Origin: an uncultured Gammaproteobacteria bacterium
GTDB lineage: Bacteria > Patescibacteriota > Microgenomatia > Levybacterales > GWA1-39-11
Length of the DNA: 64,000 bases
Direction: 5' to 3'
NCBI GenBank assembly: GCA_964531275.1
Contig: CAZHDZ010000004.1
Span: 73,887-137,886 of the forward strand
The notes under the pieces: generated by a model
Database searches by the model: none
The model's input: the letters and a program-made list of their open reading frames with translations, nothing else
What the model was told of the DNA's origin: nothing
Program-made: the position numbers and the translations under genes
Shown: one piece after another, positions 7,378 through 64,000 of the stretch
Layout of the letters: every line of letters starts with the position of its first letter
Position numbering within the stretch: position 1 is the first letter of the stretch

Positions 7378-9624
7378 TTATTGCGTCTTAACCTCAATAC
7401 TAATATTTCCTGGATTTAGAGGCACAATTTGAGGCAAAAATGGAATAGCATTTTCAAATTGAATTGACGCATCTGAAATACCGGGAGTTTGCTTTAGACT
7501 ATCAAGGGCTTCTTTTGATCCTTTCCCCGCAACAATTTTAGGCACTGATTTTTCATCAAGTGATGGCTTGAAAATAGCGTTATACGAAAGTTTTGCTGAG
7601 AGATCTTTTCCGTCTTGCTTGATATCTGAGATTTTAATTGTACTTTCATTATCTGAAAGCTTAAATTCATCGGGTACATCAAATTCATCCGATGAAGAAA
7701 TGAAATTGAGAAGCTCTTCCTTGTTGTAGACTCCCAATGTATATGTTACTGAAGCATTTAACTTCAATGTCTTTGCAGTATCATTCTCTTTTCTGTCAAA
7801 TTTTTTCTCCTTAAAGTCAAAGGAAAGATACATTGGGACCATTGCGTCTTTCTCAGACAAAGATCCTTCTGCTTCTCCTTTTGCTTTATCAAAAAGTCTT
7901 TCAATAACTGATGTTTCAAGTGTCTGCAAGTCTTTCTTAGAAACTACCTGTATCTCTTCCTTTGTTCCGCCTGAGAATGCAGAATCATTTCTTCCGAAAA
8001 CATCAGAAGTAGAAAGGCCCTTTATTGTAAAGTTTGTTTGGGATGGAAGGTTATACTCTTTACCAAAACTCGAAGCTGCAACTTTTGCCTGAGCGCTTTG
8101 GAAAGATGTCGCAAAAGAGCTGGTCGAGGCAATACTAACCGCATCGTTAAGAGTAAATTCAAGATTGTTTGAGGAAGTAATAGTCGATCCTTTTTCTAGT
8201 TGCTTGGGGCTTTCTGTCTTGTTAAAAATGGTTACTGTACCAGTCGCTTTTTGACCGGTATCTTTCTTGCCTGTGGTTTCTTGGGCCTGCTCTCCGCTTG
8301 CCTCTTGCTCTATTGTAGAAATCTTAAGTATTTTATCCTCAAAAGATGAACTACCGCTTGTACTTAATGTTATATCCATCTGATCTTGAGCAAATTCTTT
8401 TTGATCCGTAAATACAATTACCTTCACCTTTACAATTGCTGTGTAATAAATCACAAGAACAACTATCACGACAATAAGCGCAATCAAAGGAATTATAAAT
8501 TGTCTTCCACTACCGATCATTTTTGGGAAGCGAGATAGTGATCTTGGAGTAAAAAAAGAAGCCAATGACTCCTTAAAACCTCTTCGTGCACTACTATGGC
8601 CTTCTACTTCTTCGGGGATGTCCTCCTCATATTCACTTTCAGCAACCTCAGTTTGCTCAATACCATGATGCTTTATAACTGCATGTGAAGTATTATCTTC
8701 ACTAAATTTAAAGCCATCTTCCTCAGGGGTAGTTGGCGACACCTCAGATACTACTTGAGAAGCAACTAGAGCAATGTCTTCGTCTTTCAAAAATCCGAAA
8801 TCATTACTACTCGATTCTTTTACCTCCCCTACTTCTATGTCTTCTTCTCTTGAAGGCGTGACCATTTCACCACTTATCGTTACGTTGAGTTGAGATGCTA
8901 CTCCCGTTATTATTGCTTGATTTTCAAATCCCTTCTCAAGAATAGTCACCTGAGGCAAGTGCATAAATGGAAGTTCTTTCGTCCAGTGATGTGACAGGAA
9001 TTTCTGAGAAACTGCCTCAGCCTCCTTATTGTGAAGAAGAATTATCTTTGGGGGAAGTACATCAAGCTTTGTTACTTGGGAAAGCAATTTTTCAACGGTA
9101 GCCTCAACACCATCCTCTACAATTCCGTGCTTAACATCAATGATATTCCCCCCTCTTACGATAAATACTGTTAAATACTTCTCCGAAAGTTCAACAAAAA
9201 TACCACTGATTGGAGCTCCTTCTTTCTTTTGCAATGCGGCTGTTATTGCCTCAATTGAGACGATAAAACCCATAGGGGTAAGTGCTAGTTCTTGGCTTAT
9301 TTTTTTAAGTTGCGTCAGTCTTTCGGACTTGATTCTTCCTTCCTCAACCCATGAGTAAGGAACTGCAAATATAGTCTTTTCTAAATTCGCACCCTCTGGA
9401 AGGCTCATCTCAATACGCGAAATGACTGTATCACATACAACAATAAGATCTTCTGCAGATGATTGTTCAAGATCTACTGGTGCTTCATGAGAGGAAAGGA
9501 TAATGAGAGTTTTTTCTTGTTCTTTAAAAAGGATAGAGGAAACCTTATCCGACTCAAAAATTAGAGCCAGAAAAAATTCAGTAGTAACAGTCTTTGTTAA
9601 GAATGGTATGGCAGGAAACTTCAT
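7378..9624 (-). CDS. Large hypothetical membrane protein (748 aa): N-terminal cytoplasmic domain, single TM, Ser/Thr-rich extracellular region.
   Basis: Long ORF with one strong hydrophobic helix (FIIPLIALIVVIVVLVIYY) and no recognisable catalytic motif. Abuts the sortase gene. Confidence 0.45.
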   Translation of the reverse strand: MKFPAIPFLTKTVTTEFFLALIFESDKVSSILFKEQEKTLIILSSHEAPVDLEQSSAEDLIVVCDTVISRIEMSLPEGANLEKTIFAVPYSWVEEGRIKSERLTQLKKISQELALTPMGFIVSIEAITAALQKKEGAPISGIFVELSEKYLTVFIVRGGNIIDVKHGIVEDGVEATVEKLLSQVTKLDVLPPKIILLHNKEAEAVSQKFLSHHWTKELPFMHLPQVTILEKGFENQAIITGVASQLNVTISGEMVTPSREEDIEVGEVKESSSNDFGFLKDEDIALVASQVVSEVSPTTPEEDGFKFSEDNTSHAVIKHHGIEQTEVAESEYEEDIPEEVEGHSSARRGFKESLASFFTPRSLSRFPKMIGSGRQFIIPLIALIVVIVVLVIYYTAIVKVKVIVFTDQKEFAQDQMDITLSTSGSSSFEDKILKISTIEQEASGEQAQETTGKKDTGQKATGTVTIFNKTESPKQLEKGSTITSSNNLEFTLNDAVSIASTSSFATSFQSAQAKVAASSFGKEYNLPSQTNFTIKGLSTSDVFGRNDSAFSGGTKEEIQVVSKKDLQTLETSVIERLFDKAKGEAEGSLSEKDAMVPMYLSFDFKEKKFDRKENDTAKTLKLNASVTYTLGVYNKEELLNFISSSDEFDVPDEFKLSDNESTIKISDIKQDGKDLSAKLSYNAIFKPSLDEKSVPKIVAGKGSKEALDSLKQTPGISDASIQFENAIPFLPQIVPLNPGNISIEVKTQ

Positions 9625-11481
9625 TTAACTCACTTTTACATAAAGACGTCTTACCCCACGGGCAACGCCTTCTTCCTTAAGTATATCAAATGACTGGATA
9701 AGATCTGTATGCTCAACATGAGGACCTCCACAGAACTCTATGGAATAAGCTTTCTCTTTTTCTGAGTGTGGGTTTGGCCCGCCAATAAAGTATATTTTTA
9801 CGTCTTTTGCATATTTGTCATCAAATAACCCGATTGCTCCTAGGTCTCGAGCCTTCTGAAGAGGCATAATCTCAAAATGCACAGAAAGATCTTCTGCTAT
9901 TTTCTTATCTACAATTTCCTTAACTTTTTGCAATTCTTCTGGGGTTACTTTTTTATCATATGTAAAATCGAATCGCACTCTTTCTGACGTGATATTACTT
10001 CCCGTCTGATGCACTGAGTCCCCCAGAATGTCACGAAGGGCCTGATGCATGAGATGTGTCGCTGTATGCCCTTTAACAGTTAATTCTGAATGGTCTGCAA
10101 GACCACCAGCAAATTTTTGCGATGAACCAGCTCGAGAATTTTCCTGATGCTTTTTAATAAGCTCTGAAAGCTCTTTATCATCAAATGTATACCCAAGGCT
10201 TTTAAGCTGAGTTGGACCAAGACCATAGCTTGCCATAGATTTAAATGCTAAATCTGCAGAAATTAATGTAACTCCCATTAATTCATCTCCAACAGTTACT
10301 TCTTCGGTAATTCTTGATAACTCTTTTTCTATAAGCTTTTTTCCGCCAGCGAGTGCTTTTTGATATGTCTGCTCCTCTTCAAGAATTATATTTTTAATCT
10401 CGATGAACTGGTCTTTAAGAATCGGATCAGTAGGAGCATATTGCTCTACAATTTTTTCCAAGACCGACGAAATGTCTTTTCCAGAAAGTAGGTAGAAATT
10501 ATCTAGTCCTCTTCTTATTAAGCGGCGCAGAATATACCCTTGTTCTTTGTTTGAAGGTTTTACTCCATTCGATGCAATAAAAATGGAAGCAGTCATATGA
10601 TCCAAAACAATTCTCATTTCACGAAATTCCTTCGCATAATCTTTACCTGTAATCTCTGCTATTTTTTCAATAATTGGATAGAAAAGACTTGATCTAAATA
10701 CATCTTGCTTGTTCTCGGTAGCAGCAACGAGTCGCTCAAGACCTCCACCAAAATCTACATTTTGTTTTGGTAGATCTTCAAATCCATTTTCGGTCTTGAT
10801 GTATTGCATAAATACCGAATTGCCAATTTCCAAATATCTTCCGCAATCACAATTTACATGACAATGTAAATTCTTAAATGGGCTATTCTCATGAAGTCCT
10901 AATTCCTCCCCAAAGTCATAAAACATTTCGCTATCAGGTCCACCTGGCTCTCCATTTGGCATCTTATCTGGAGTTCCTGCACGAGACCACCAATTCTTCT
11001 CAACACCATATTCAAAGATTTTATCTTTTGGGTCTAGGCCTTTTTTTGTAAAAAGTTCTTTCCAAATTTCAATACTCTCGGTGTCTTTTTCAACTGTATC
11101 CGATCCCTCAAAAACAGTGACAAATAATTTCTTTGGATCAAGATTTAATTCTTCTGTTAAGAATTCAAAAAACCAAGGAAGTTGTTCTTTCTTAAAATAA
11201 TCTCCAAGAGACCAATTTCCAAGCATTCTAAAAAATGTTGTATGTCTGTTATCTCCTATTTCATCGATATCTTGAGCGCGAAAACTATTTTGAGCATTTA
11301 CTAATCTTTTTCCAGAAGGATGCTCTTCGCCGAGAAGAAATGGTACAAGCGGTTGCATTCCTGATGATGTAAAAAGAGTTGTCGGGTCATTCTGTGGCAC
11401 GAGTGAAGAATTCTCAATGCGTGCGTGTCCACGCTTTTCAAAAAATGAAATGTATTTATTAAGAATTTCTGAAGCTGTCAT
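9625..11481 (-). CDS. alaS: Alanine--tRNA ligase (short form, 618 aa).
   Basis: Class II AlaRS motifs FTSSGMQPLVPF and RHTTFFRMLGNWSLGDYFK. Editing-domain HTATHLMHQALRDILG. Confidence 0.9.
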   Translation of the reverse strand: MTASEILNKYISFFEKRGHARIENSSLVPQNDPTTLFTSSGMQPLVPFLLGEEHPSGKRLVNAQNSFRAQDIDEIGDNRHTTFFRMLGNWSLGDYFKKEQLPWFFEFLTEELNLDPKKLFVTVFEGSDTVEKDTESIEIWKELFTKKGLDPKDKIFEYGVEKNWWSRAGTPDKMPNGEPGGPDSEMFYDFGEELGLHENSPFKNLHCHVNCDCGRYLEIGNSVFMQYIKTENGFEDLPKQNVDFGGGLERLVAATENKQDVFRSSLFYPIIEKIAEITGKDYAKEFREMRIVLDHMTASIFIASNGVKPSNKEQGYILRRLIRRGLDNFYLLSGKDISSVLEKIVEQYAPTDPILKDQFIEIKNIILEEEQTYQKALAGGKKLIEKELSRITEEVTVGDELMGVTLISADLAFKSMASYGLGPTQLKSLGYTFDDKELSELIKKHQENSRAGSSQKFAGGLADHSELTVKGHTATHLMHQALRDILGDSVHQTGSNITSERVRFDFTYDKKVTPEELQKVKEIVDKKIAEDLSVHFEIMPLQKARDLGAIGLFDDKYAKDVKIYFIGGPNPHSEKEKAYSIEFCGGPHVEHTDLIQSFDILKEEGVARGVRRLYVKVS

Positions 11482-11525
11482 GTAGTAGGTATTGTAGCAG
11501 AATGAGGTAAAAAACTCGAGAAGGT

Positions 11526-12137
11526 CTACTGATGTTCTGGAATGACTCCCGCATCCCCACCAAATCCATATTGCTGAATAATACCCGTTAGCTCACTTAC
11601 GCTTGGCAATGTGTTCGCGACATTATAGTAATCTGCGGGAGACAGGGTTGTACATTTATTTTGCTGTGCGCCTTCAGCAGCACGCCAAAGTAGTCCGCAA
11701 ATTTGGGGATCAACATTCAAGAAGGGATCTATCCCTTCGCCTTGTGGAATAGATCGGCTTTTGAGCTCAGCCCTGCCCGCCTCAATATCTACAGTTAGAC
11801 CAAGCCCTCTTGCCCTCACCTCATCAAGAGCCTCTTTTACTTCTGGGCTTTCATAGGCCGCAAGCATAACGTGCTCTGGCAACAATACTGCGTGTCCAAG
11901 AGCTGCCGCTTCGTCTTCAGCCTTAATGAGAGTTCTTATCATCTCATCTGAAAATGTTGGCATGTCAACTTGAGCGAGCCTTTCGTTGAGAAGAGTAAAG
12001 ATTACATGTGGTTGTCTTTCTGCACTTTCCTCAAACTCAGCTCCATTTGCAGTAATTGTTGGAGGTCCACCAGCACCCTCCATTCGGGTTTCGGTTTGAT
12101 AAATATGTGGTTGTCTTTCTAGTAACGCTGCGCTCAT
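11526..12137 (-). CDS. Stand-alone Clp N-terminal (Clp_N) domain protein.
   Basis: Clp_N repeat-like segments (LGHAVLLPEHVMLAAYESPEVKEALDEVRARGL). Two ERQPH motifs. GC visibly higher than flanking DNA. Confidence 0.55.
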   Translation of the reverse strand: MSAALLERQPHIYQTETRMEGAGGPPTITANGAEFEESAERQPHVIFTLLNERLAQVDMPTFSDEMIRTLIKAEDEAAALGHAVLLPEHVMLAAYESPEVKEALDEVRARGLGLTVDIEAGRAELKSRSIPQGEGIDPFLNVDPQICGLLWRAAEGAQQNKCTTLSPADYYNVANTLPSVSELTGIIQQYGFGGDAGVIPEHQ

Positions 12138-12167
12138 ACAGACATACTATTATACACGGTAAAATTA

Positions 12168-12647
12168 CTACCGTAACTCTTTTAATCGTTCGTCAAGATT
12201 TCTTGAGCTATTATTCTCAAACGCTATATGAGACACACTAACTTCCTCCCACTTTTTCATATAATCATCCAGTAAATTTTCACCAAAAAAATGATTTTTT
12301 CTTTGTGAAATTCTTTTTTTGTGAACAATTGATGGTGCAGTCACTAAAATGAGCTTGATCTGGCCAGAAAAAGCACTTAGAACATATTCTCGAGATGTAT
12401 TATCTGGAAGACTATCCCCTAGAGCAATGTTGTCGTGATGCTTTTGAAGCTTTTTTATATGATCTATAATTCGCTCAAGCTTTAATAGCCTATCCTGCCT
12501 CGTGAACTTTTTATTCAATAATTTCTCTCTATCTTCATCTGTTAAAAAATCGTCGGCATCAAGATAAGAAAATTTTTCAATTACAGCTAACCTCTTCGCG
12601 CAATAATCTTTCCCAATTCCAGGAAATCCAAAAAACCAATAAATCAT
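12168..12647 (-). CDS. P-loop NTPase / small nucleotide-kinase-like protein.
   Basis: Walker A motif GFPGIGKDY near the N-terminus. 159 aa. Confidence 0.5.
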   Translation of the reverse strand: MIYWFFGFPGIGKDYCAKRLAVIEKFSYLDADDFLTDEDREKLLNKKFTRQDRLLKLERIIDHIKKLQKHHDNIALGDSLPDNTSREYVLSAFSGQIKLILVTAPSIVHKKRISQRKNHFFGENLLDDYMKKWEEVSVSHIAFENNSSRNLDERLKELR

Positions 12648-12663
12648 ACTCCAACATTATAAT

Positions 12664-13119
12664 ATGCCTTACCTATGGTACAATCCGCCTATGAATTTCG
12701 AGCGTTTTAGAACTTCAAAATCAAACATGCTAAGAAACTCTGCATATAGCATTGGCATTGCGGGAAGCATCTGCTTAGGTGGTGGATTAGTTGGTGCAAT
12801 AAATTCTCGTAGTGAAATGAGGGATGGTCTCTCTCAATTTGAAAGTGCACACCTCGTAAGTGACCAAACCCCATACCCTGCAACAGATTTGGATAGAAAA
12901 ATGTACAAAAAGTTAACATTTGATCCTTATGTCGGTGAAAGTGGACTTACGAGCCTTACCCCTAATCAGCATGAATTTTTAACTGATGCTTATGAGAGCA
13001 AGCTTGACTACGATGTATTTATTAACCTAATGGGAGCTGGCGCAGTATTAATACTACCGGGATTGGTATGTATTGCAAATGAACTTAATTCTTGTGCAGC
13101 GCAAAAAAATATTAGATAA
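12664..13119 (+). CDS. Hypothetical membrane protein.
   Basis: 151-aa ORF with two hydrophobic segments. It is the only plus-strand gene in a long minus-strand block. Confidence 0.35.
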   Translation: MPYLWYNPPMNFERFRTSKSNMLRNSAYSIGIAGSICLGGGLVGAINSRSEMRDGLSQFESAHLVSDQTPYPATDLDRKMYKKLTFDPYVGESGLTSLTPNQHEFLTDAYESKLDYDVFINLMGAGAVLILPGLVCIANELNSCAAQKNIR

Positions 13120-13735
13120 ATTCTTTAAGTGGGCAATCAACGTGTTTGCATGATGCTTTACAATACACCCTTCCGTAATAGATCATGCCAAGTCCAAATT
13201 CACGCCAATCTTTTTGAGGGATAATTGCCATCAAATCTTTCTCAATTTTTACTGGATCCTTCTGAGAAGAAAGTCCAAATAAATTTGACAGCCTTCTGAC
13301 ATGAGTATCAACAACAACTCCCTCTGATTTTCCAAATGCTTCCTGCAAAATTACATTGGCTGTTTTACGTCCTATAAATGGTAAGGCAATTAGCTCCTCC
13401 ATGGTCTGTGGCATATTGCCGTTATATTTTTCAGTCACTATTTTTGCTGCTTCAAGAATTGCTTTTGCTTTTCCTTTATGGAAATTTATACTTTTAATAT
13501 CCTGATCAAATGCTTCAAAAGTTGCCTTGTAATAATCATCTAATTTTTTATATTTCTTAAAAAGGGTCTCAGTTACCTTATTTACCCCAACATCTGTCTG
13601 CTGGGCTGACAACGCTACTGCTACATATAATTCCCAAGGATTTGAGTGCACAAGGGGAGTCTTTGGATCTGGAAAAAGTTTCTTAAGCTCTTCAGTAATT
13701 TTGATAGCCTTTGTTTTTGTATCCATATCAACCAA
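13112..13735 (-). CDS. nth: Endonuclease III (HhH-GPD DNA glycosylase/lyase).
   Basis: HhH-GPD signature LIALPFIGRKTANVILQEAFG, preceded by LSAQQTDVGVNKVT. C-terminal Cys cluster CKASCKHVDCP. Confidence 0.8.
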   Translation of the reverse strand: MVDMDTKTKAIKITEELKKLFPDPKTPLVHSNPWELYVAVALSAQQTDVGVNKVTETLFKKYKKLDDYYKATFEAFDQDIKSINFHKGKAKAILEAAKIVTEKYNGNMPQTMEELIALPFIGRKTANVILQEAFGKSEGVVVDTHVRRLSNLFGLSSQKDPVKIEKDLMAIIPQKDWREFGLGMIYYGRVYCKASCKHVDCPLKEFI

Positions 13736-14681
13736 TTATACCTGCAAGAACGGAGGCTAACTTTTCAGAATCATGTCTTAAAAATTGTCCGTCTCGTAAA
13801 AGGTCGGCTCTCACAATATTTTCATTTTTCAAATTATCTTCAACGAATTCCACTTGCTCTTCTTCATATCTTTTCACAATATCCCCCGTTGGACGATTAG
13901 TATTTACAGTTACAATATCGATCCTTCCTTTTCCAATATACTCTTCCATTCTTCCTACAAAATCCTGAGCTTTAAAGCCGTTGGTCTCTCCAAATTTAGT
14001 CATGATATTTACGTTATATATAACCTTTGCTTTCGACTTTCCAATTGCATCAGACACCCCCTCAACTACAAGATTCGGCAAAATACTAGTAAATACATCT
14101 CCTGGACCTAAAATAATTACATCAGCCTTTTCTATAGCCAATATTGCTTCAGGGTTTGCGGTAGCTGTAGGCTCAAGATGCACTTCTTTTATCTGTAGTT
14201 TTCCATCGTGTTTTGGAATGTCGATGTTTGTTTCACCCTCAATCGCTTTCCCATTCGTAAGTGTTGCGATAAGCCTAGTCCTTGTAAAAGTGACAGGCAA
14301 AACTTGACCCTTGATATTGAGTATTTCTCCCGCTTCTTTTACCCCCTTACCAAAGTCCCCAGTTATTTTTTCAAGTGCGGTTAGCAGAAGGTTACCAAGA
14401 CTATGCCCCTTAAGAGATGATTCTTCATCAAAGCGGAAATTGAAGAGTTCTGATAATATTTTTCTGTTGGAATCTGAAAGGGCAATTAATGCACGACGTA
14501 TATCTCCTGGAGGTAACGTCCCAAATTCCTCTCGAAGTACTCCGGTTGATCCACCATCGTCAGACATGCTAACTATTGCAGAAAGGTCGTATGGATACTC
14601 ACGCAGACCCGATAGGACAGTGTATCCTCCCGTTCCGCCGCCAATGAATACTACGCGCTTCATATTTTTCTTTGGAATCAT
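13728..14681 (-). CDS. YvcK/CofD-family protein (UPF0052, gluconeogenesis factor-like).
   Basis: N-terminal VVFIGGGTGGYTVLSGL and SDDGGSTGVLR motifs are diagnostic of the YvcK/CofD family. Confidence 0.8.
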   Translation of the reverse strand: MIPKKNMKRVVFIGGGTGGYTVLSGLREYPYDLSAIVSMSDDGGSTGVLREEFGTLPPGDIRRALIALSDSNRKILSELFNFRFDEESSLKGHSLGNLLLTALEKITGDFGKGVKEAGEILNIKGQVLPVTFTRTRLIATLTNGKAIEGETNIDIPKHDGKLQIKEVHLEPTATANPEAILAIEKADVIILGPGDVFTSILPNLVVEGVSDAIGKSKAKVIYNVNIMTKFGETNGFKAQDFVGRMEEYIGKGRIDIVTVNTNRPTGDIVKRYEEEQVEFVEDNLKNENIVRADLLRDGQFLRHDSEKLASVLAGIIG

Positions 14682-38726: not shown

Positions 38727-40187
38727 CTAGTTATAGGATATTATCATATCACCTATAGTAAAGTCAACTTTTGGATCTATCATTATCCCACATTCATTCC
38801 CTTTACCAATTTCTTTTGCGTCTTTTTTTCCCTGTTTTAGTGAACTAATGCTACTTTCGGCAGATTCAACTTCACCTTTTTTAATAATAATCTTATCTCC
38901 TACAGCAAGTCTTCCCTCCGTTATTCTCACTCCTAGTATCTGGCCTTCGTTACCCTCAAATGTTGCTAAAATTTGAGCCTTTCCAAAAATCTTCCTTTGA
39001 GCACGTTCTTGAAGGAGTGCTGAAGCATCAGCAAGCTCATCTAATAGATTATAAATAATGTCATATGTGCGATAGAACGTATTATTAGATTCAGCCAAAA
39101 CCTTCGCTTGTTTTTCAATATCAACATTAAATCCAACAACGATTGCACTAAAGTCTCTTGACATAAGAATATCCGAAACCGAAATCTCTCCTCTACCCTC
39201 GAAGATGACCTGAATATCTGATGGAAGTGCAGCGCTAATAGCTTCAAATTCTCCGCTCGTTTGGGTTTTTATTATTACTGGCAATTTCTCTTCTGGCTTA
39301 CCTTTTTTCAGCATAGCTAAGAAATCAGCACCTACTTTTCTTTCAACTTGTGATGCAGCAACTGTTTCGGTTGCACTCACTGTATTTATAACACTACCTG
39401 CTGGAAGCACTTCAGTTAACCCCAATAGCTCAATAGCATCGCCTGGCAATGCTTCCTTTACTTGCTTTCCCATACTATCTATAAGAGCTCTTATTTTCCC
39501 CACCTCTTTAGCTTTCGTGAATACTTTATCTCCAACCGATATCGTTCCGTCCTTTACTATTAGTGAAGCCAAAATTCCTCTCCTTTTATCAAGTTTTGCT
39601 TCAATCACCACACCCGTAAAGGGAAGGGAAGCATCTTTTTTAGCTTCAGAAAAGTCATATACAATAACAATAAGATCTAAAAGGTCGGGTATTTTGTCTC
39701 CTGTTTTTGCACTAACGGCAATAAAAGGAACGTCTCCACCAAGTCCTTCTAAAAGAACGCCTTCTGATGCTAATTGCTGTTTTATTTTTTCAATATTTGC
39801 TCCGGGAGCATCTGCTTTAGTAAAGACAACAATAAATGGTAATTTTGAAGCTAGAATTTTCTCAATAGACTCTTTTGTTTGAGGCTTGATGCCATCATCA
39901 GAAGCAACGACTAGAAGTACAATGTCAGCGGCTGATACTCCGTGGGAGCGCATATTCGAAAATGCTTCATGACCTGGAGTATCTATAAAAGTTATATATC
40001 TCTTTTGCCCATCGTGGACAATTTCAATCTTGGATGCACCAATTGCTTGAGTAATACCTCCAGCCTCACCAGAAGCAATATTACTTTTTCTGAAAGAATC
40101 GAGCAATGTTGTCTTACCATGATCTACATGGCCAAGAACTGAAACTACAGGAGGATAGGGTATGTGTTGTGCAATATTTTTTTCCAT
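38727..40187 (-). CDS. infB: Translation initiation factor IF-2 (short form lacking the N-terminal extension).
   Basis: G-domain motifs VSVLGHVDHGKTTLLD, DTPGHEAF, TKAD. Followed by beta-barrel domains. Confidence 0.9.
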   Translation of the reverse strand: MEKNIAQHIPYPPVVSVLGHVDHGKTTLLDSFRKSNIASGEAGGITQAIGASKIEIVHDGQKRYITFIDTPGHEAFSNMRSHGVSAADIVLLVVASDDGIKPQTKESIEKILASKLPFIVVFTKADAPGANIEKIKQQLASEGVLLEGLGGDVPFIAVSAKTGDKIPDLLDLIVIVYDFSEAKKDASLPFTGVVIEAKLDKRRGILASLIVKDGTISVGDKVFTKAKEVGKIRALIDSMGKQVKEALPGDAIELLGLTEVLPAGSVINTVSATETVAASQVERKVGADFLAMLKKGKPEEKLPVIIKTQTSGEFEAISAALPSDIQVIFEGRGEISVSDILMSRDFSAIVVGFNVDIEKQAKVLAESNNTFYRTYDIIYNLLDELADASALLQERAQRKIFGKAQILATFEGNEGQILGVRITEGRLAVGDKIIIKKGEVESAESSISSLKQGKKDAKEIGKGNECGIMIDPKVDFTIGDMIISYN

Positions 40188-58191: not shown

Positions 58192-58980
58192 GTGGCTATC
58201 GATAAACATTTCCTCAAAGAGAATAAACTCGTTGTAAATACTGCCTGGATACTTGGCCTTATACTCATATTCTTATGGGCGGTTAATTTCTTCAATATCG
58301 CTTACCCCCTTACTGTAACCTCAAAACAAAGCTCAGGAGAATTAGCTGTTGTAGGCGTTGGAAAAGTTGATACTACTCCAGATACAGCATCAGTTGATCT
58401 TGGAATTGTAGTAAATGACGCAAAGACAATTGAAGAGGCATCAACCCAGATCAATAAAGTTAACAATGATATAGTAACTGGTCTTACTGCACTAGGAATT
58501 GAAAAGGGAGATATCAAAACTTCCAATTATTCTATTAATCCTAACTACGATTACACAAGAGTTCCAAATGGCACAATCACAGGCTACAGTGGGAATACTA
58601 CAGTTACAGTAAAGGTAAAAGATACAACAAAATTACCTCAAGTAATTGAAGCAGGAACAAAGGGCGGTGCTAACCAAGTTATGGGCACTAACTACACCAT
58701 CGATAAGCCTGAAGATTATCAAGAACAAGCTCGTAAAAAGGCTATCCAAAATGCTAAAGAGCAGGCAAATAAAATGGCTTCAGAGTTAGGAATAAGACTA
58801 GGACGCGTCGTAAATATTGTTGAATCTTCAAGCAGCAATGGACCAATACCAATGATGTATGCAAAGTCAGCTGTTATGAATCTTGATGCACGAGGAGGAA
58901 CCAATGCTCCTATCCCAGAACTCCAACCAGGAACCCAAACAATCACCTCAACCGTTACCTTGTATTTCGAAACACGTTAG
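58192..58980 (+). CDS. SIMPL-domain protein (DUF541 / BP26-like).
   Basis: N-terminal TM, then VVGVGKVDTTPDTASVDLGIVVND, GYSGNTTVTVKVKD and a C-terminal QPGTQTITSTVTLYFE. Typical SIMPL layout. Confidence 0.75.
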   Translation: MAIDKHFLKENKLVVNTAWILGLILIFLWAVNFFNIAYPLTVTSKQSSGELAVVGVGKVDTTPDTASVDLGIVVNDAKTIEEASTQINKVNNDIVTGLTALGIEKGDIKTSNYSINPNYDYTRVPNGTITGYSGNTTVTVKVKDTTKLPQVIEAGTKGGANQVMGTNYTIDKPEDYQEQARKKAIQNAKEQANKMASELGIRLGRVVNIVESSSSNGPIPMMYAKSAVMNLDARGGTNAPIPELQPGTQTITSTVTLYFETR

Positions 58981-59058
58981 ACAATGTACCCTAAGCATGG
59001 TCGAAGGGTAACCCTCTACTTCGAGACTAGATAACCTTTTAAACACTTGCTGATGTAT

Positions 59059-59334
59059 TTATTGAATAATTTTTTGAAAGAAGTTGTTGATTCTATCAAG
59101 ATCTTTCAAGGTATATTTTTTTGGAATGTCATTGCCGAGGAGTACTCTGCGAGTTTCTAGAGAGCAAAGTGTGTATTTTATCTGAGTCGGAATTTTCTCT
59201 TCTGGCATTTCTGAGCTCATTATTAACTTTTTGAGCTTTGTTGCCAAATAGCTAAATTTTATTTCATCGTGCTTATACCTATCTATCAGAACAATGATTT
59301 CAAAAAATGATTCTTTGTTATTTTGAAAATCCAT
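59059..59334 (-). CDS. Small hypothetical protein (91 aa) at the distal end of the Rhs locus.
   Basis: Intact ORF. Position is consistent with an immunity-type gene but there is no direct evidence. Confidence 0.3.
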   Translation of the reverse strand: MDFQNNKESFFEIIVLIDRYKHDEIKFSYLATKLKKLIMSSEMPEEKIPTQIKYTLCSLETRRVLLGNDIPKKYTLKDLDRINNFFQKIIQ

Positions 59335-59471
59335 TTAAGTTTAGGTTAATTTAATCGTAAACCAAACTTATTAAAAAATAATTAAAAAAAATCTTATACG
59401 TGACTACGACATTAATTTAATATCAAAAGACATTAAGCTTCCTTTTATTCCGCAGGTGATGAAGGATGAGA

Positions 59472-59864
59472 CTAATAGCAATATTCTTTTATTCCTGTAA
59501 TTTTATTGTTAAGGTCGGCAAATATTCTTATTCCGCCACATGGAAGCCATCCTATTTTGTTGATAACTGAACTCTGGGTATAGTAGGTTAATCTAATATA
59601 AGCGTTTCCATTAGATCTAACGTTATATGTTCTTTGATCGTATGACCAATCAGTAACGTAGTCGATCTCAGCAGGTTTACCTGCGTAAGCAATAAGATTC
59701 TCGATACTTTTACCTTCAAGTCTTTTTTCTTCGTATAGCCCTGAAATTCTGTGATAATTAGCATTCAAGAAGCTAGAAACAAGAATAGTATATAAAACCA
59801 ATAGTAATACTATTGCGACAAGCAATTTAAGAACTGTAGTATATTTAAGTTTTAGTATGTACAT
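59472..59864 (-). CDS. Small membrane-anchored protein (130 aa). Candidate immunity protein for the adjacent orphan Rhs toxin module.
   Basis: Lies immediately downstream (same strand) of the orphan toxin ORF. N-terminal TM (LLVAIVLLLVLYTILV). Confidence 0.35.
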   Translation of the reverse strand: MYILKLKYTTVLKLLVAIVLLLVLYTILVSSFLNANYHRISGLYEEKRLEGKSIENLIAYAGKPAEIDYVTDWSYDQRTYNVRSNGNAYIRLTYYTQSSVINKIGWLPCGGIRIFADLNNKITGIKEYCY

Positions 59865-59873
59865 CGTAATGAA

Positions 59874-60428
59874 TTACCAGCAGACGTTTGGTTTCCATGC
59901 GTTACCTGTAATAGAACCGTCATTCAACTTATACGTACCAGAATAATCTCTTGGAGTTCCAGCTGCGTTTAACACAGCCTTAACTGCATTATTCAAGAGT
60001 TCTCTTGTGCCATTCACTGTATAAACTCCATTATTAGTTACCATTACGTCAACCCCGGTGCCATTCTTGTAGATTGAATCATTTGAGAAAATGACTCCAT
60101 CCTGAGGTCTTGGATCATTAGTCTTTGCTGGTAACCAATTGTACTCATCCGTATTCTCATTTTCAAGCTTAATCAACACTGCTTGATCCGAATTATTATA
60201 AACAGCCTCCCCACTCGGGTCTGACAAATTTATTGGATCTCCATTAGTAAAGTTGTAGCCATTTTGGGTTTGTGGATTCATAAGATCTCCTTCGACTGGA
60301 TCTCTGGAGATGAATCTTCCAATTGAAGGATCGTAATATCTAGCGCGCATGTAAGTAAGGGAGGTATTTGGGTCAAATTGCTCTCCTTTGTATTGAAAGT
60401 CATCTTCTCCAACTCCGCTTAATACATT
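59874..60428 (-). CDS. Orphan Rhs C-terminal module 2: 3' end of the Rhs core (RYYDP...DPxG) plus a distinct ~110-aa C-terminal toxin-like domain.
   Basis: DNA homology to the main rhs gene (62380..62520) and to orphan 1 (61260..61400) runs from ~60428 to the DPSG motif, then diverges. The ATG-bounded ORF is 59874..60350 (MRARYYDPSIGRFISRDPVEGDLMNPQTQNGYNFTNGDPINLSDPSGE...). Confidence 0.65.
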   Translation of the reverse strand, partial: NVLSGVGEDDFQYKGEQFDPNTSLTYMRARYYDPSIGRFISRDPVEGDLMNPQTQNGYNFTNGDPINLSDPSGEAVYNNSDQAVLIKLENENTDEYNWLPAKTNDPRPQDGVIFSNDSIYKNGTGVDVMVTNNGVYTVNGTRELLNNAVKAVLNAAGTPRDYSGTYKLNDGSITGNAWKPNVCW

Positions 60429-60461
60429 TCATATTAATAGAGAGTTGAACTAATAATTATT

Positions 60462-60785
60462 ATGAAGATTTGGTATACTACATCGCATATGGAAAATGCT
60501 TATTTAATAGCGGTAATTTTTTATACAATCCTGGCAGTACTAGTGCTTTGCGCAGAATTTAACTTTGTTAAGGTTTACAGAAAAAAAGGGTTTGAAAAAA
60601 AAGATTCAGAGCATAATACACTAGTTTTTTTATTGCTTCATTCAGAATACAATCTAAAAGCTTTATTTCTTGCATTTAATAAAATTCCAGATCAAGAAGT
60701 AGAAAAAGCAAGAAAAGCTTTCCTTGGATCTTTAGCACTAGCTATAATAGGTGTGTTTGGCCTTCAGATTTACTTCGCTTTATAA
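60462..60785 (+). CDS. Small two-TM membrane protein on the opposite strand between the two orphan Rhs modules.
   Basis: 107-aa ORF with two hydrophobic helices. Could be an immunity gene or a spurious ORF. Confidence 0.3.
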   Translation: MKIWYTTSHMENAYLIAVIFYTILAVLVLCAEFNFVKVYRKKGFEKKDSEHNTLVFLLLHSEYNLKALFLAFNKIPDQEVEKARKAFLGSLALAIIGVFGLQIYFAL

Positions 60786-60793
60786 TAAATCAA

Positions 60794-61588
60794 TCACCAC
60801 GCAGAACCTATTACAATAGTTTCGCTCTTACCTCCATGTATTCCTACGGGTAAAGAAATACCCCCATTCAAACCTACCTCTACAGCAGTGATATTGTTCG
60901 TCTCTAAGTTTTTTTCGAAAGATACATCTACTGGCCCTACCCAAAAACCTAGCTGACTACTAGTCCCATTAAGATCCGAAGGTTTTTTTACATTACTATC
61001 CCAATTGTAATAAACTGATCCACCCCCGCTAACTATATCAAAGGTACTACCCCCTATTGATGTGGACTTCGCCTTGCCCGTACCCTGAGGAGTACTAACG
61101 CTACAGTTTGAATATGACCCAGCCACTCCGACACCTCCCGATATACAGCCGCATATCCCGAAGGCATCTTTGCCAGATGGGTCGGAGAAGTTCACGGGGT
61201 CACCATTTGTAAAATTATATCCATTTTGTGTTTGTGGATTCATAAGATCTCCTTCGACTGGATCTCTGGAGATGAATCTTCCAATTGAAGGATCGTAGTA
61301 TCTTGAGCGCATGTAGGAAAGATTGGTATTTGGATCAAATTGTTCTCCTTTGTACTGAAAGTCATCTTCCCCTATTCCACTTAGTACATTTCCGTATGGG
61401 TCGTAAGATAGATCTTTAATATATTCTCCGTTGCTATCTGTAACAATTCTAATATTTCCAATTCCATCTTCTAAGTAGTATTCACGATTTCCACTACTTA
61501 CCCCACCTTCACTTATGAGTCCATTGCCGTAGAGATAATAATTATCAGTACTATTTGTAAGATCTTTGGTAACAAGTACTTTTTCCAA
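60794..61588 (-). CDS. Orphan Rhs C-terminal module 1: ~130 aa of the Rhs core 3' region plus a distinct Gly-rich ~125-aa C-terminal toxin-like domain.
   Basis: Near-identical to the main rhs gene from DLEKVLVTKDLTNSTDNYY through RYYDPSIGRFISRDPVEGDLMNPQTQNGYNFTNGDP, then unrelated. An in-frame TGA sits immediately upstream of the TTG/Leu at the homology boundary. Confidence 0.7.
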   Translation of the reverse strand: MEKVLVTKDLTNSTDNYYLYGNGLISEGGVSSGNREYYLEDGIGNIRIVTDSNGEYIKDLSYDPYGNVLSGIGEDDFQYKGEQFDPNTNLSYMRSRYYDPSIGRFISRDPVEGDLMNPQTQNGYNFTNGDPVNFSDPSGKDAFGICGCISGGVGVAGSYSNCSVSTPQGTGKAKSTSIGGSTFDIVSGGGSVYYNWDSNVKKPSDLNGTSSQLGFWVGPVDVSFEKNLETNNITAVEVGLNGGISLPVGIHGGKSETIVIGSAW

Positions 61589-61683
61589 ATCTCATAAGCT
61601 TTTTTGCATTTTATAACTATTTTATTATCTGCAAAAAAATCTAGATATGCGCATGAATAAGTTGAAGTAAATCAAAAATACTT

Positions 61684-61935
61684 CTATAAAAATTCTATAA
61701 TACCAAAAATGGATAATATTCCAAAAAATATGAAGACAAACCCAACAAATATATACATAATCGATGTATTTTGTTTAGTAGTCTCGCTATACTGCATCCT
61801 GATATGCAGAAGCTTATTTATTTTTTTTCTCTGTTCAACCGCAGCTCTTGAAAGCTTATCAGGATTAAATACTGAATACACACCAACCATTACAAGAATA
61901 ATGCCTGGCACCTTTGACATAAAATTTTCAATCAT
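61684..61935 (-). CDS. Small two-TM membrane protein directly downstream of the main rhs gene. Candidate Rhs immunity protein.
   Basis: 83 aa. TM helices GIILVMVGVYSVF and IMYIFVGFVFIFFGILSIFGII. Starts 16 bp after the rhs stop. Confidence 0.45.
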   Translation of the reverse strand: MIENFMSKVPGIILVMVGVYSVFNPDKLSRAAVEQRKKINKLLHIRMQYSETTKQNTSIMYIFVGFVFIFFGILSIFGIIEFL

Positions 61936-61950
61936 ATCGCAATTATAAAT

Positions 61951-64000
61951 CTATTTACATAAATTGCCATAAGTTTTTTGAATCATTGCAGATGCACCAC
62001 GCGCGCCTAATCCCGCTTCCGTAGTCATAGTTCCTGTCTTTGGATTTACATTTAATTGGTATGCTATAGGTACAGGTCCAGCCATGAAATTTGTCTGAAA
62101 CGATGCGTCCGTTCCGGGAGAAGGCTCCGCTTTTGAATATGTAACAGAGGCACCAATCCCACCAGGAAATGCAACACCTGCAGCATGATATAAATATACC
62201 CCTGTCTTATCTAGATCTACAAGCGCTCCCACTCCTATGGCTAAGGGTACAATACCAACGCTTACACCAACGTTAACATAGTCTTCTCCGCTAGGGTCCG
62301 CGTAATTTATTGAATCTCCGTTTGCAAAGTTGTAGCCATTTTGGGTTTGGGGACTCATAAGATCTCCTTCGACTGGATCTCTGGAAATGAAACGGCCAAT
62401 GTTTGAATCATAGTATCTTGCGCGCATGTAGGAAAGATTGGTATTTGGATCAAGTTGTTCTCCCTTGTATTGAAAGTCGTCTTCTCCTATTCCACTTAGT
62501 ACATTTCCGTATGGGTCGTAAGATAGATCTTTAATATATTCTCCGTTGCTATCTGTAACAATTCTAATATTTCCAATTCCATCTTCTAAGTAGTATTCAC
62601 GATTTCCACTACTTACCCCACCTTCACTTATGAGTCCATTGCCGTAGAGATAATAATTATCAGTACTATTTGTAAGATCTTTGGTAACAAGTACTTTTTC
62701 CAAATCTCCAGAAACATCATTTATATACTTTTTAGTAAGAGAAGAATTTTCTTTTTCTGCAACTCTCTTACCATTGCCGTCGTATAGAAAATGATACGTA
62801 GGGCTTCCAGATGCTGCATATGTTGCCAATTTATTTTCGAAGTTAAAAGTAAGTGTTTTGTTACCAAATCCAGTTATGTTGCCATTATTGTCATAAGAAT
62901 AGGATGTGCCGTCTTTTACTGTAAGCCTATTGTCATTATTGTATGTAAGAGCACTGCTGGATGCACCCAATGTTCCTGTTAGCATATTCCCAACCTTGTC
63001 ATATGTATAAGCAAATGAATTGCTTGCAGATGTTGCTGCTGTGAGTCTTCCTAATGGGTCATAAGTAAACTGAAAATTTGACGAAGCACCACCACTTGCT
63101 TCTGCTGGCTCAAGCGCTACAGCAACATGGTTTGATCTACCACCATAAGAGAGACTCCAATCCATATCGACCGCTGCTGGCCCACCGGATTGAATAATAC
63201 TAGAGCCACTTCCATTGTCATAAGAATTTGGATGACCGTTTTCTGACCAATCCAATTCATTGTCACCATCTTCAGTGGGGACAGGCTCTGATTCTATTAC
63301 ATCAATAATTACATTATTTGCCGAATTAGGTGTAATGCTAACGGAAGAATAATTACTGCTTTGAGATAGACTGTCTGATTCAACAGTGTAGGTCTGTTTG
63401 ACATTGTATATGGAGTAAGCTGCTAGAAAAGTGTAGTCCCCGCCACTAAGTCCTGATGTTACGATGCTACCACTTCCGCCTGCTGGCGCCTGCAAGCCCC
63501 ACATTTGTACGAATTCTCCATACTGACCGATTTGCTGAGCCAACTTAGTCAAAGCAACCCCTCCATATGTCACTCCAGTTGCCCCAGTTGCTCCTCCCCC
63601 TTGGTGAGAGCCGACTGATACAAGCAAGAATCTGTTTGAATTACTGCCATTGACCGGAAAACTGGAGAGAGTTACGTTACCCCCAGTATTGTGCGTTGAT
63701 TCTATCGTCCCATCAAGCTCGATAGTTGAACCTCCACCGCCCCCAATGCCTTCAGACGAAGCCTCGGCCGGTTCAAGAGCAACTGCAACATGGTTGGATC
63801 TTGCACCGTAAGAAAGCGCCCAATTCATATCAACCTCGGAAGGTCCCCCAGACTGAACTATGGTAGAGCCACTTCCATTGTCATAAGAATTTGGATGACC
63901 GTTTTCTGACCAATCCTCTATATTGGCTCCGTCAACAGTTGGCACAGGCTCTGACTGAATAGCATCAATTATCCAATTATCGGCTGAGTTTGGAGTGATG
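61951..64000 (-). CDS. Rhs/YD-repeat polymorphic toxin (partial; N-terminus beyond the window) with a unique Gly-rich hydrophobic C-terminal domain.
   Basis: YD repeats (YDPLGRLT, YTYDKVGNM, YSYDNNGNI, YHFLYDGNGKRV). Core end motif RARYYDSNIGRFISRDPVEGD...DPSGE. The ORF is still open at the window end. N-terminal region carries a repeated ~55-aa unit (DWSENGHPNSYDNGSGS...). Confidence 0.85.
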   Translation of the reverse strand, partial: ITPNSADNWIIDAIQSEPVPTVDGANIEDWSENGHPNSYDNGSGSTIVQSGGPSEVDMNWALSYGARSNHVAVALEPAEASSEGIGGGGGSTIELDGTIESTHNTGGNVTLSSFPVNGSNSNRFLLVSVGSHQGGGATGATGVTYGGVALTKLAQQIGQYGEFVQMWGLQAPAGGSGSIVTSGLSGGDYTFLAAYSIYNVKQTYTVESDSLSQSSNYSSVSITPNSANNVIIDVIESEPVPTEDGDNELDWSENGHPNSYDNGSGSSIIQSGGPAAVDMDWSLSYGGRSNHVAVALEPAEASGGASSNFQFTYDPLGRLTAATSASNSFAYTYDKVGNMLTGTLGASSSALTYNNDNRLTVKDGTSYSYDNNGNITGFGNKTLTFNFENKLATYAASGSPTYHFLYDGNGKRVAEKENSSLTKKYINDVSGDLEKVLVTKDLTNSTDNYYLYGNGLISEGGVSSGNREYYLEDGIGNIRIVTDSNGEYIKDLSYDPYGNVLSGIGEDDFQYKGEQLDPNTNLSYMRARYYDSNIGRFISRDPVEGDLMSPQTQNGYNFANGDSINYADPSGEDYVNVGVSVGIVPLAIGVGALVDLDKTGVYLYHAAGVAFPGGIGASVTYSKAEPSPGTDASFQTNFMAGPVPIAYQLNVNPKTGTMTTEAGLGARGASAMIQKTYGNLCK

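Follow-up and report, generated by a model that had tools for sequence, protein, structure and literature searches.

Probable WapA-like Rhs polymorphic toxin locus with exchangeable orphan tip cassettes from an uncultured bacterium

The loading of an orphan toxin tip onto a main rhs gene by recombination across the shared core has been demonstrated experimentally in Salmonella (PMC3967940), an orphan being a fragment without shell, export signal or dedicated start (PMC3967940, PMC3150448). In enterobacterial Rhs proteins the aspartyl-protease motif reads DPxGx18(19)DPxG, and one Rhs tip, Tse5-CT, is pore-forming (PMC10684867). A YD/Rhs polymorphic toxin with an immunity gene has already been noted in a genome of Saccharibacteria, which belong to the candidate phyla radiation (CPR; PMC6031116). 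We analyzed a 64-kb stretch of contig CAZHDZ010000004.1 from an uncultured bacterium (the whole stretch is called the window), the right end of which carries an rhs gene and two orphan fragments with small genes between them. We conclude, with a probability of roughly 85%, that this region is the 3' end of a WapA-like Rhs polymorphic toxin locus, exported by the Sec pathway rather than by a type VI secretion system (T6SS), whose orphan cassettes serve tip swapping.

We examined the repeat structure of the array in order to delimit its modules. A tblastn search with the 138-aa core gave exactly three matches in the window (62700-62287, 61585-61172 and 60428-60210), and a repeat finder returned a three-copy direct repeat (family D1) with spacings of 962 and 1115 nt. 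With limits refined by DNA alignment (Table 1), the main gene and orphan 1 copies measure 422 nt (about 140 aa) each and the orphan 2 copy 225 nt (75 aa). The sequence-only reading, which had described three homologous copies of ~130 aa, was thus right about the homology and about the first two lengths, while the copy of orphan 2 is roughly half as long. All three exceed the curated cut-off (32.5 bits) of the NCBIfam model TIGR03696 for the RHS repeat-associated core, scoring 65.8 (main), 73.6 (orphan 1) and 47.4 bits (orphan 2). The window fragment of the main gene also matches PF05593 (RHS_repeat, 36.9 bits against a cut-off of 22), and residues 285-571 of its product match the C-terminal end of Rhs shells in PDB (8h8a at 2e-19, 7q97 and Tse15) as well as teneurins, these matches ranging from E 2e-19 to 1e-9. 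That the repeated segments are indeed Rhs core, on which the sequence-only reading depended, is therefore well established.

Every core copy terminates in RYYD(P/S)..GRFISRDP..NGYNF.NGD(P/S)....DPSG, the closing motif that had been noticed at the outset. In the DNA alignment the similarity among the copies breaks off at DPSG, and there a variable C-terminal tip begins: tip A on the main gene (111 aa), tip B on orphan 1 (125 aa) and tip C on orphan 2 (111 aa), each adjoined by a small membrane-protein gene. As proposed, the three tips show no robust homology to one another. Tip C shows no relationship to A or B (z about 0, 500 shuffles), and A and B share a marginal local similarity over 41 residues (BLASTP E 4e-4, z 4.4-4.6). 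Grouping A and B as one family was rejected as unproven: tip A against B', a longer relative of B, gives z -0.9, and the A-family tips of a groundwater relative have no link to B. In-frame stop codons stand directly upstream of both orphan core fragments, so the orphans have neither shell, export signal nor dedicated start. The tips are also as unlike known toxin families as had been supposed, since neither they nor the four small proteins of the array have a match in Pfam, NCBIfam or PDB. For the tips and for a domain inserted in the shell (see below), Pfam gave nothing even at E up to 10, and PDB searches with the tip A family, an A/B/B' alignment, the tip C family, the inserted domain and the 130-aa family gave nothing below E 0.03. 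Transmembrane (TM) segments are predicted in three of the four small open reading frames (ORFs): two each in the 83-aa and 107-aa proteins and one in the 130-aa protein. The description of these genes as small membrane proteins accordingly holds for those three; the 91-aa protein has no TM segment and is not an obvious immunity partner. Scans of JGI metagenomes with the core and with orphan 2 gave no matches, and no record turned up for the exact proteins of orphan 1, orphan 2 and the 83-aa gene. In the interval 59059-62286, the immunity-candidate genes have a GC content of 30-32% and the tips of 39-44%, with 38.4% for the genome.

Related rhs loci were collected from metagenome contigs and contigs of metagenome-assembled genomes (MAGs), labelled L001-L021. 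Three of them carry the comparison. L008, found by exact look-up of the 107-aa protein, is a 66.8-kb metagenome contig with a complete syntenic locus; L007, a MAG contig that ends inside the main gene, was the single relative from a genome collection scan; and L021, a more distant locus, comes from groundwater. L007 and L008 are conspecific, with flanks 96.4% and shells 98.7% identical. Their main genes carry different tips. In L008, as in the window, the main gene ends in tip A, followed by the 83-aa gene. The main gene of L007 has a GIY-YIG nuclease (PF01541, 28.8 bits) as its tip and a leucine-rich repeat (LRR) protein encoded behind it, and tip A with its 83-aa gene stands farther downstream in L007 as an orphan. 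From this difference in position, tip A is in the loaded state in the window and in L008 and in the displaced state in L007, which supports the orphan/swap interpretation first drawn from the letters of the window. The orphans vary as well. L008 has four (C', B', B and C), and the window array equals that of L008 minus C' and B', with the junction inside a core repeat at about 61403-61424.

The core sequences themselves point to ongoing recombination between the main gene and the orphans. From their start, the main core and the long orphan core agree at every position for 223 nt in the window, for 355 nt in L008 and for 195 nt in L007, and beyond this stretch they diverge towards the tip, with breakpoints that differ among the three genomes. 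Orthologous cores, on the other hand, differ by about 12%, and identity within each genome set against this divergence between genomes argues for concerted evolution through main gene/orphan recombination. These comparisons also bear on a different view of the array, as mainly a collection of immunity genes in which the orphan tips are decaying leftovers of displacement, kept for their linked immunity and forming no functional reservoir. Such a view would account for orphans without start and export signals next to immunity ORFs that are intact and conserved, and contact-dependent growth inhibition (CDI) offers a precedent for orphan immunity expressed without the orphan toxin (PMC3150448). 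Decay, however, is hard to reconcile with orphan tip ORFs that are all intact, with orphan cores kept identical to the main core in three genomes, with the movement of tip A between main and orphan position in conspecific strains, or with a ratio of nonsynonymous to synonymous substitution rates (dN/dS) of 0.03 between the main copy of tip A in the window and the orphan copy in L007. Tip A is under strong purifying selection. We consider an immunity collection unlikely as the principal role of the array, though it is partly compatible with our preferred explanation, an array of tips available for swapping.

In a separate observation, the two tips of L007 (1720-2081 and 4815-5168), the GIY-YIG tip and an unknown one, share a Cys-rich N-terminal segment, A(A/V)ACRDGDCTNEAR, directly after DPSGEAV, and the two tips diverge beyond it. 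This shared segment may be a pre-toxin or linker module.

We then compared the window at 59041-62258 with L008 at 8597-13890. The flanking housekeeping genes of the two are about 80% identical, whereas positions 59041-61403 are 99-100% identical to L008 and the cassette of tip A and the 83-aa gene (61659-62258) is 97-98% identical. Synonymous divergence (dS) agrees, at 0.09-0.40 for tip A against 1.35 for the flanking HhH-GPD gene, and at 0.09 for the tip A and 83-aa cassette between the window and L008. The cassettes thus share a far more recent ancestor than the genomes that carry them, which implies recent cassette exchange between species. Phage and plasmid collections gave no DNA match to the cassette region and thus pointed to no vector. 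The 3'-terminal 27 nt of a SIMPL gene recur 27 nt downstream, where the array has its inner edge (alignment; a single exact 21-mer match), and in the identity profile this duplicate coincides with the inner limit of the 99-100% block. The second copy is degenerate in L007 and missing from L008. The duplicate may have been left behind when the array first inserted; its reading as an att-like island border was rejected, there being no second copy at the far end of the L008 locus.

Could this pattern be in part an artefact of metagenome assembly? In that case, both the window-specific connection between the long core and tip B (about 61403-61424) and the block of 99-100% identity might represent a chimeric path through repeats that two co-occurring species share. 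Most assemblies break within the array (contigs end there in L001-L006, L007 and L017), the right edge of the block falls in a core repeat, and the junction specific to the window is absent from every other assembly found. Set against this, the left edge of the block has no long repeat, just the 21-27-nt duplicate; the junction of the 83-aa gene with the long core is present in three genomes; and the conservation of the tip A cassette is not explained by chimerism, because it is 97-98% rather than 100% identical. More than 10 independent assemblies, made with various assemblers and from various samples, show the module order B-107-C-130-91, and the contig of L008 covers the array from end to end, which also speaks against a collapsed repeat of a single gene, an error that the sequence-only reading had named as one that would refute it. 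We hold a chimera to be highly improbable, and exchange of cassettes between species remains our explanation for the block. The features of the locus are collected in Table 1.

Table 1. Features of the rhs locus at the right end of the window (positions are those of the window; TM, transmembrane segment)
Feature	Position	Strand	Evidence or remark
Main rhs gene, 3' part, 683 codons	61951..64000	-	Open to window end; PF05593; PDB shell matches
Tandem non-YD domain of ~221 aa in YD shell	63088..64000	-	Copy 2 complete, 63088-63729; copy 1 partial, 63730-64000
Main-gene core 3' segment, 422 nt, ends in DPSG	62287..62708	-	TIGR03696, 65.8 bits at aa 494-571
Tip A, 111 aa + stop	61951..62286	-	Hydropathy; relatives in L021; same tip in L007 and L008
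83-aa protein, 2 TM, putative immunity protein for tip A	61684..61935	-	Position, TM, L021 homologue
Orphan 1: core 61172-61593 + tip B 60794-61171 (125 aa)	60794..61593	-	TIGR03696; upstream stop
Orphan 1, 264-codon ORF	60794-61588	-	
107-aa protein, 2 TM, candidate immunity protein for tip B	60462..60785	+	Position only
Orphan 2: core 60210-60434 + tip C 59874-60209 (111 aa)	59874..60434	-	TIGR03696 profile positions 33-75; upstream stops
Orphan 2, 158-aa ORF	59874-60350	-	
130-aa protein, N-terminal TM anchor + ~100-aa domain, putative immunity protein for tip C	59472..59864	-	
91-aa soluble protein, array end	59059..59334	-	
27-nt duplicate of SIMPL gene 3' end	59008..59034	+	First copy 58954-58980; alignment

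The reading frame of the main gene runs without a stop codon up to position 64000, and its full-length features were read from the L008 orthologue. This protein of 1964 aa, colinear with the window at about 90% DNA identity and bearing the same tip, contains 10 RHS repeats (291 bits) and a DUF6531 plug that scores 18.4 bits, below the cut-off of 24.1. By inspection and hydropathy, its N-terminus consists of a basic stretch, MSKVTSKRIKLISKK, followed by a hydrophobic, signal-like stretch. PAAR and LXG were not detected in the orthologue with Pfam, which also found no domain in residues 1-384, cell-wall-binding domains (LysM/CWB) included. From the signal-like N-terminus together with the PAAR and LXG result, we infer that the main protein belongs with the Sec-dependent WapA-type Rhs toxins of monoderms and not with T6SS effectors.

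The shell of the main protein is interrupted by a tandem non-YD domain, which appears in the window as a direct repeat (D2) with a 663-nt period and 77% identity and has no Pfam, NCBIfam or PDB match. The L008 protein has two full copies at the same place (aa ~1150-1590), about 270 aa before the cleavage motif; in the Rhs protein of L021 this position of the shell is occupied by a pair of CARDB domains with PT-rich linkers. The insertion site might be modular as well, possibly with a role in binding targets. Upstream, a gene for a 199-aa protein with a signal peptide and no family match (L008 19445-20044) shares 8 nt with the beginning of the main rhs gene. The overlap suggests translational coupling, and the 199-aa protein may be an accessory factor.

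We characterized the tips and their partners by composition, homology and position. Tip A is 14% Gly and has one hydrophobic Gly-rich segment, VNVGVSVGIVPLAIGVGAL, by hydropathy. A word-indexed search of 5.8 billion proteins returned near-identical copies only, and its relatives are the main-gene tip and an orphan tip of L021 (z 13.3 and 8.0). Tip A and the A-family tips of L021 are each followed by a two-TM protein of 72-83 aa. The 83-aa gene stands behind tip A in the window, L008 and L007, with dN/dS of 0.19-0.27, and its product is related to the 79-aa protein behind an A-family tip in L021 (z 9.6). From its composition and its two-TM partner, tip A is a putative membrane-active toxin, and the 83-aa protein is its putative immunity protein. 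The profile of the tip A family found no Tse5 chain in PDB.

Tip B is 18% Gly and homologous to the 208-aa orphan tip B' of L008 and L001 (z 7.6-7.9). Between orphan 1 and orphan 2, the gene for the 107-aa protein is the one ORF that reaches 40 aa. This protein occurs with its exact sequence at the same place in more than 20 contigs and by position alone is the candidate immunity protein for tip B. Tip C is soluble. A word-indexed search again returned near-identical copies only, and an exhaustive phmmer search of 1.84 billion representatives gave seven matches, one of them spurious (P0040, a repeat protein); the about six real relatives all stand behind an Rhs core or alone. Homologues of the 130-aa protein follow C-family tips in L008 (36% identity, E 2e-18) and in L021 (49%, E 2e-43), making this membrane-anchored protein the putative immunity protein for tip C. 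In three genomes for each family, the tips change together with the proteins encoded behind them, so that the toxin/immunity pairing is supported for A and C. By these searches the three tips are very rare, uncharacterized families. In L008 (9010-9303) and L017-L020 the 130-aa candidate is called as 97 aa, and the sequences, identical elsewhere in this stretch, differ in length by 1 nt; either a frameshift has taken away the TM anchor or the sequencing is at fault. The 91-aa protein, for which Pfam and NCBIfam gave no match, is present in L001, L008 and L007 (79% aa identity); its gene is conserved and closes the array in every related genome.

The membrane association of the partners is relevant to a further alternative, that the orphans are translated independently, from the Met of MRARYYDP, as small toxins that act inside the producer in the manner of toxin-antitoxin systems. 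The three putative immunity proteins are all membrane proteins, one with a predicted external domain, which fits toxins arriving from outside, and promoter signal is not above chance. An ATG at MRARYYDP does open orphan 2 and several L001 and L008 orphans, and a report on Salmonella rhs orphans offers a precedent (PMC7043789); the same Met, however, lies within the conserved core motif of the full-length gene (SYMRARYYD) and is therefore not a dedicated start. We judge independent translation improbable and return to tips delivered by the main protein.

Taken together, the locus could work as follows. A main protein of about 1,960 aa, judged from the orthologue, would be exported through its N-terminal signal sequence and displayed at the surface, its YD-repeat shell enclosing the C-terminal tip, which the aspartyl protease of the Rhs core would cut off after DPSG. 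Tip A, now on the main gene, would most likely insert into and depolarize membranes, by analogy with the Tse5 tip, and the adjacent 83-aa two-TM protein would shield the producer. The orphans, probably promoter-less and export-less, would provide extra immunity and a reservoir of tips, one cassette consisting of core, tip B and the 107-aa TM protein and the other of core, tip C and the 130-aa membrane-anchored protein. Homologous recombination across the 225-422-nt core repeats would load an orphan tip or displace the current one. Tip C may target the envelope, because its partner is membrane-anchored.

Several results weigh against this scheme. The export signal of the window gene is deduced from the 90%-identical orthologue, its own N-terminus lying beyond the window. 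A regular-expression search for DPxGx18(19)DPxG matched none of the copies, nor the relatives in L007 and L021. One conserved Asp belongs to S[RK]DP and the other to DPSG, at a distance of 27 residues rather than 22-23, an arrangement that we treat as a spacing variant of the protease motif, so that cleavage is presumed. No toxin activity could be assigned to tips A-C, which are putative toxins only, and in the genomes retrieved B and C were seen as orphans and never on a main gene. The 107-aa gene lies on the strand opposite to every other array gene, and its homology to the 116-aa protein behind tip B' in L008 is unsupported (E 0.98, z 2.8). Promoter and terminator scans of the array gave chance level only. 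Structure predictions were of low confidence, with a predicted local distance difference test (pLDDT) score of 33 for the inserted domain from a single sequence and of 41 for orphan 2 from a six-sequence alignment, and therefore permit no fold-level assignment.

The remainder of the window encodes a short alanyl-tRNA synthetase (618 aa, NF002436, 9625-11481), a short initiation factor IF-2 (486 aa, 38727-40187), RNase J and many large proteins without any family. The two short proteins are consistent with a reduced genome, and a CPR-like host is plausible; the related contigs come from aquatic and groundwater metagenomes. Adjoining alaS is a gene for a 748-aa protein with a weak Baseplate_J match (7378-9624, minus strand, 26.5 bits), whose neighbors include several large ORFs without family.

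The architecture and evolutionary logic of such loci are already established for Rhs, WapA and CDI, and the novelty here is the tips. Three uncharacterized, extremely rare tip families are added to the Rhs repertoire, two of them with co-varying immunity partners, and the unusual pair of shell-inserted domains adds further value. The locus also provides a clear case from nature in which tips are loaded and displaced within one species and cassettes are shared between species, in an uncultured aquatic or groundwater lineage without T6SS or type VII secretion system (T7SS) context. Should the host be a CPR episymbiont, the toxins might be relevant to the way in which such cells compete or deal with hosts. 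A more ambitious joint reading, which we advance as a speculative and rather unlikely one, sees in this probable CPR/Patescibacteria lineage a weapon that is modular at two sites, with cassettes as interspecies units, shell domains that set target-cell (possibly host-cell) specificity, and unknown toxins that would act on the envelope because all three immunity candidates are membrane proteins.

We compared the locus with the systems that it most resembles. Like the main/orphan rhs loci of enterobacteria (Salmonella Typhimurium rhs-main/rhs-orphan and Dickeya dadantii RhsA/B; PMC3967940, PMC3150448), it combines a YD shell with its core, a variable tip and a gene for immunity (putative here) with downstream fragments that keep the 3' end of the core alone, and core recombination between main gene and orphan switches the deployed toxin there as it would here. 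In contrast to these loci, it has no T6SS/PAAR context and its orthologue bears a putative Sec-type signal, the Asp spacing is 27 instead of 22-23, the tips and immunity proteins are unrelated to those described, and one candidate immunity gene is inverted. With WapA of Bacillus subtilis and Streptococcus suis (PMC12704120) it shares the YD shell, core, polymorphic C-terminal toxin (putative here) and, as candidates, the N-terminal signal peptide (signal-like in the orthologue) and the downstream immunity gene, and a specialized secretion system is part of neither. Unlike in WapA, a LysM/cell-wall-binding domain, a SecF-like gene and a sortase gene were not detected in our locus, the N-terminal 345 aa of the orthologue contain no known domain, the shell has two tandem extra domains, and the tips are not tRNases.

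Tse5 of Pseudomonas aeruginosa (PMC10684867) offers a parallel for tip A, in that an Rhs shell encapsulates a small hydrophobic C-terminal fragment acting on the membrane, as we suppose for tip A from its composition and two-TM partner. Tse5 is delivered by the T6SS, however, and a PDB profile search gave no sequence similarity between the two, so the analogy is functional only. The orphan cdiA-CT/cdiI arrays of CDI systems (PMC3150448) are built on a CdiA filament with a VENN motif, whereas the present locus has an Rhs shell with a DPSG motif. Both nevertheless consist of start-less, motif-demarcated toxin-tip fragments, each with its immunity gene (putative here), and in both, near-identical modules occupy different array positions in different strains.

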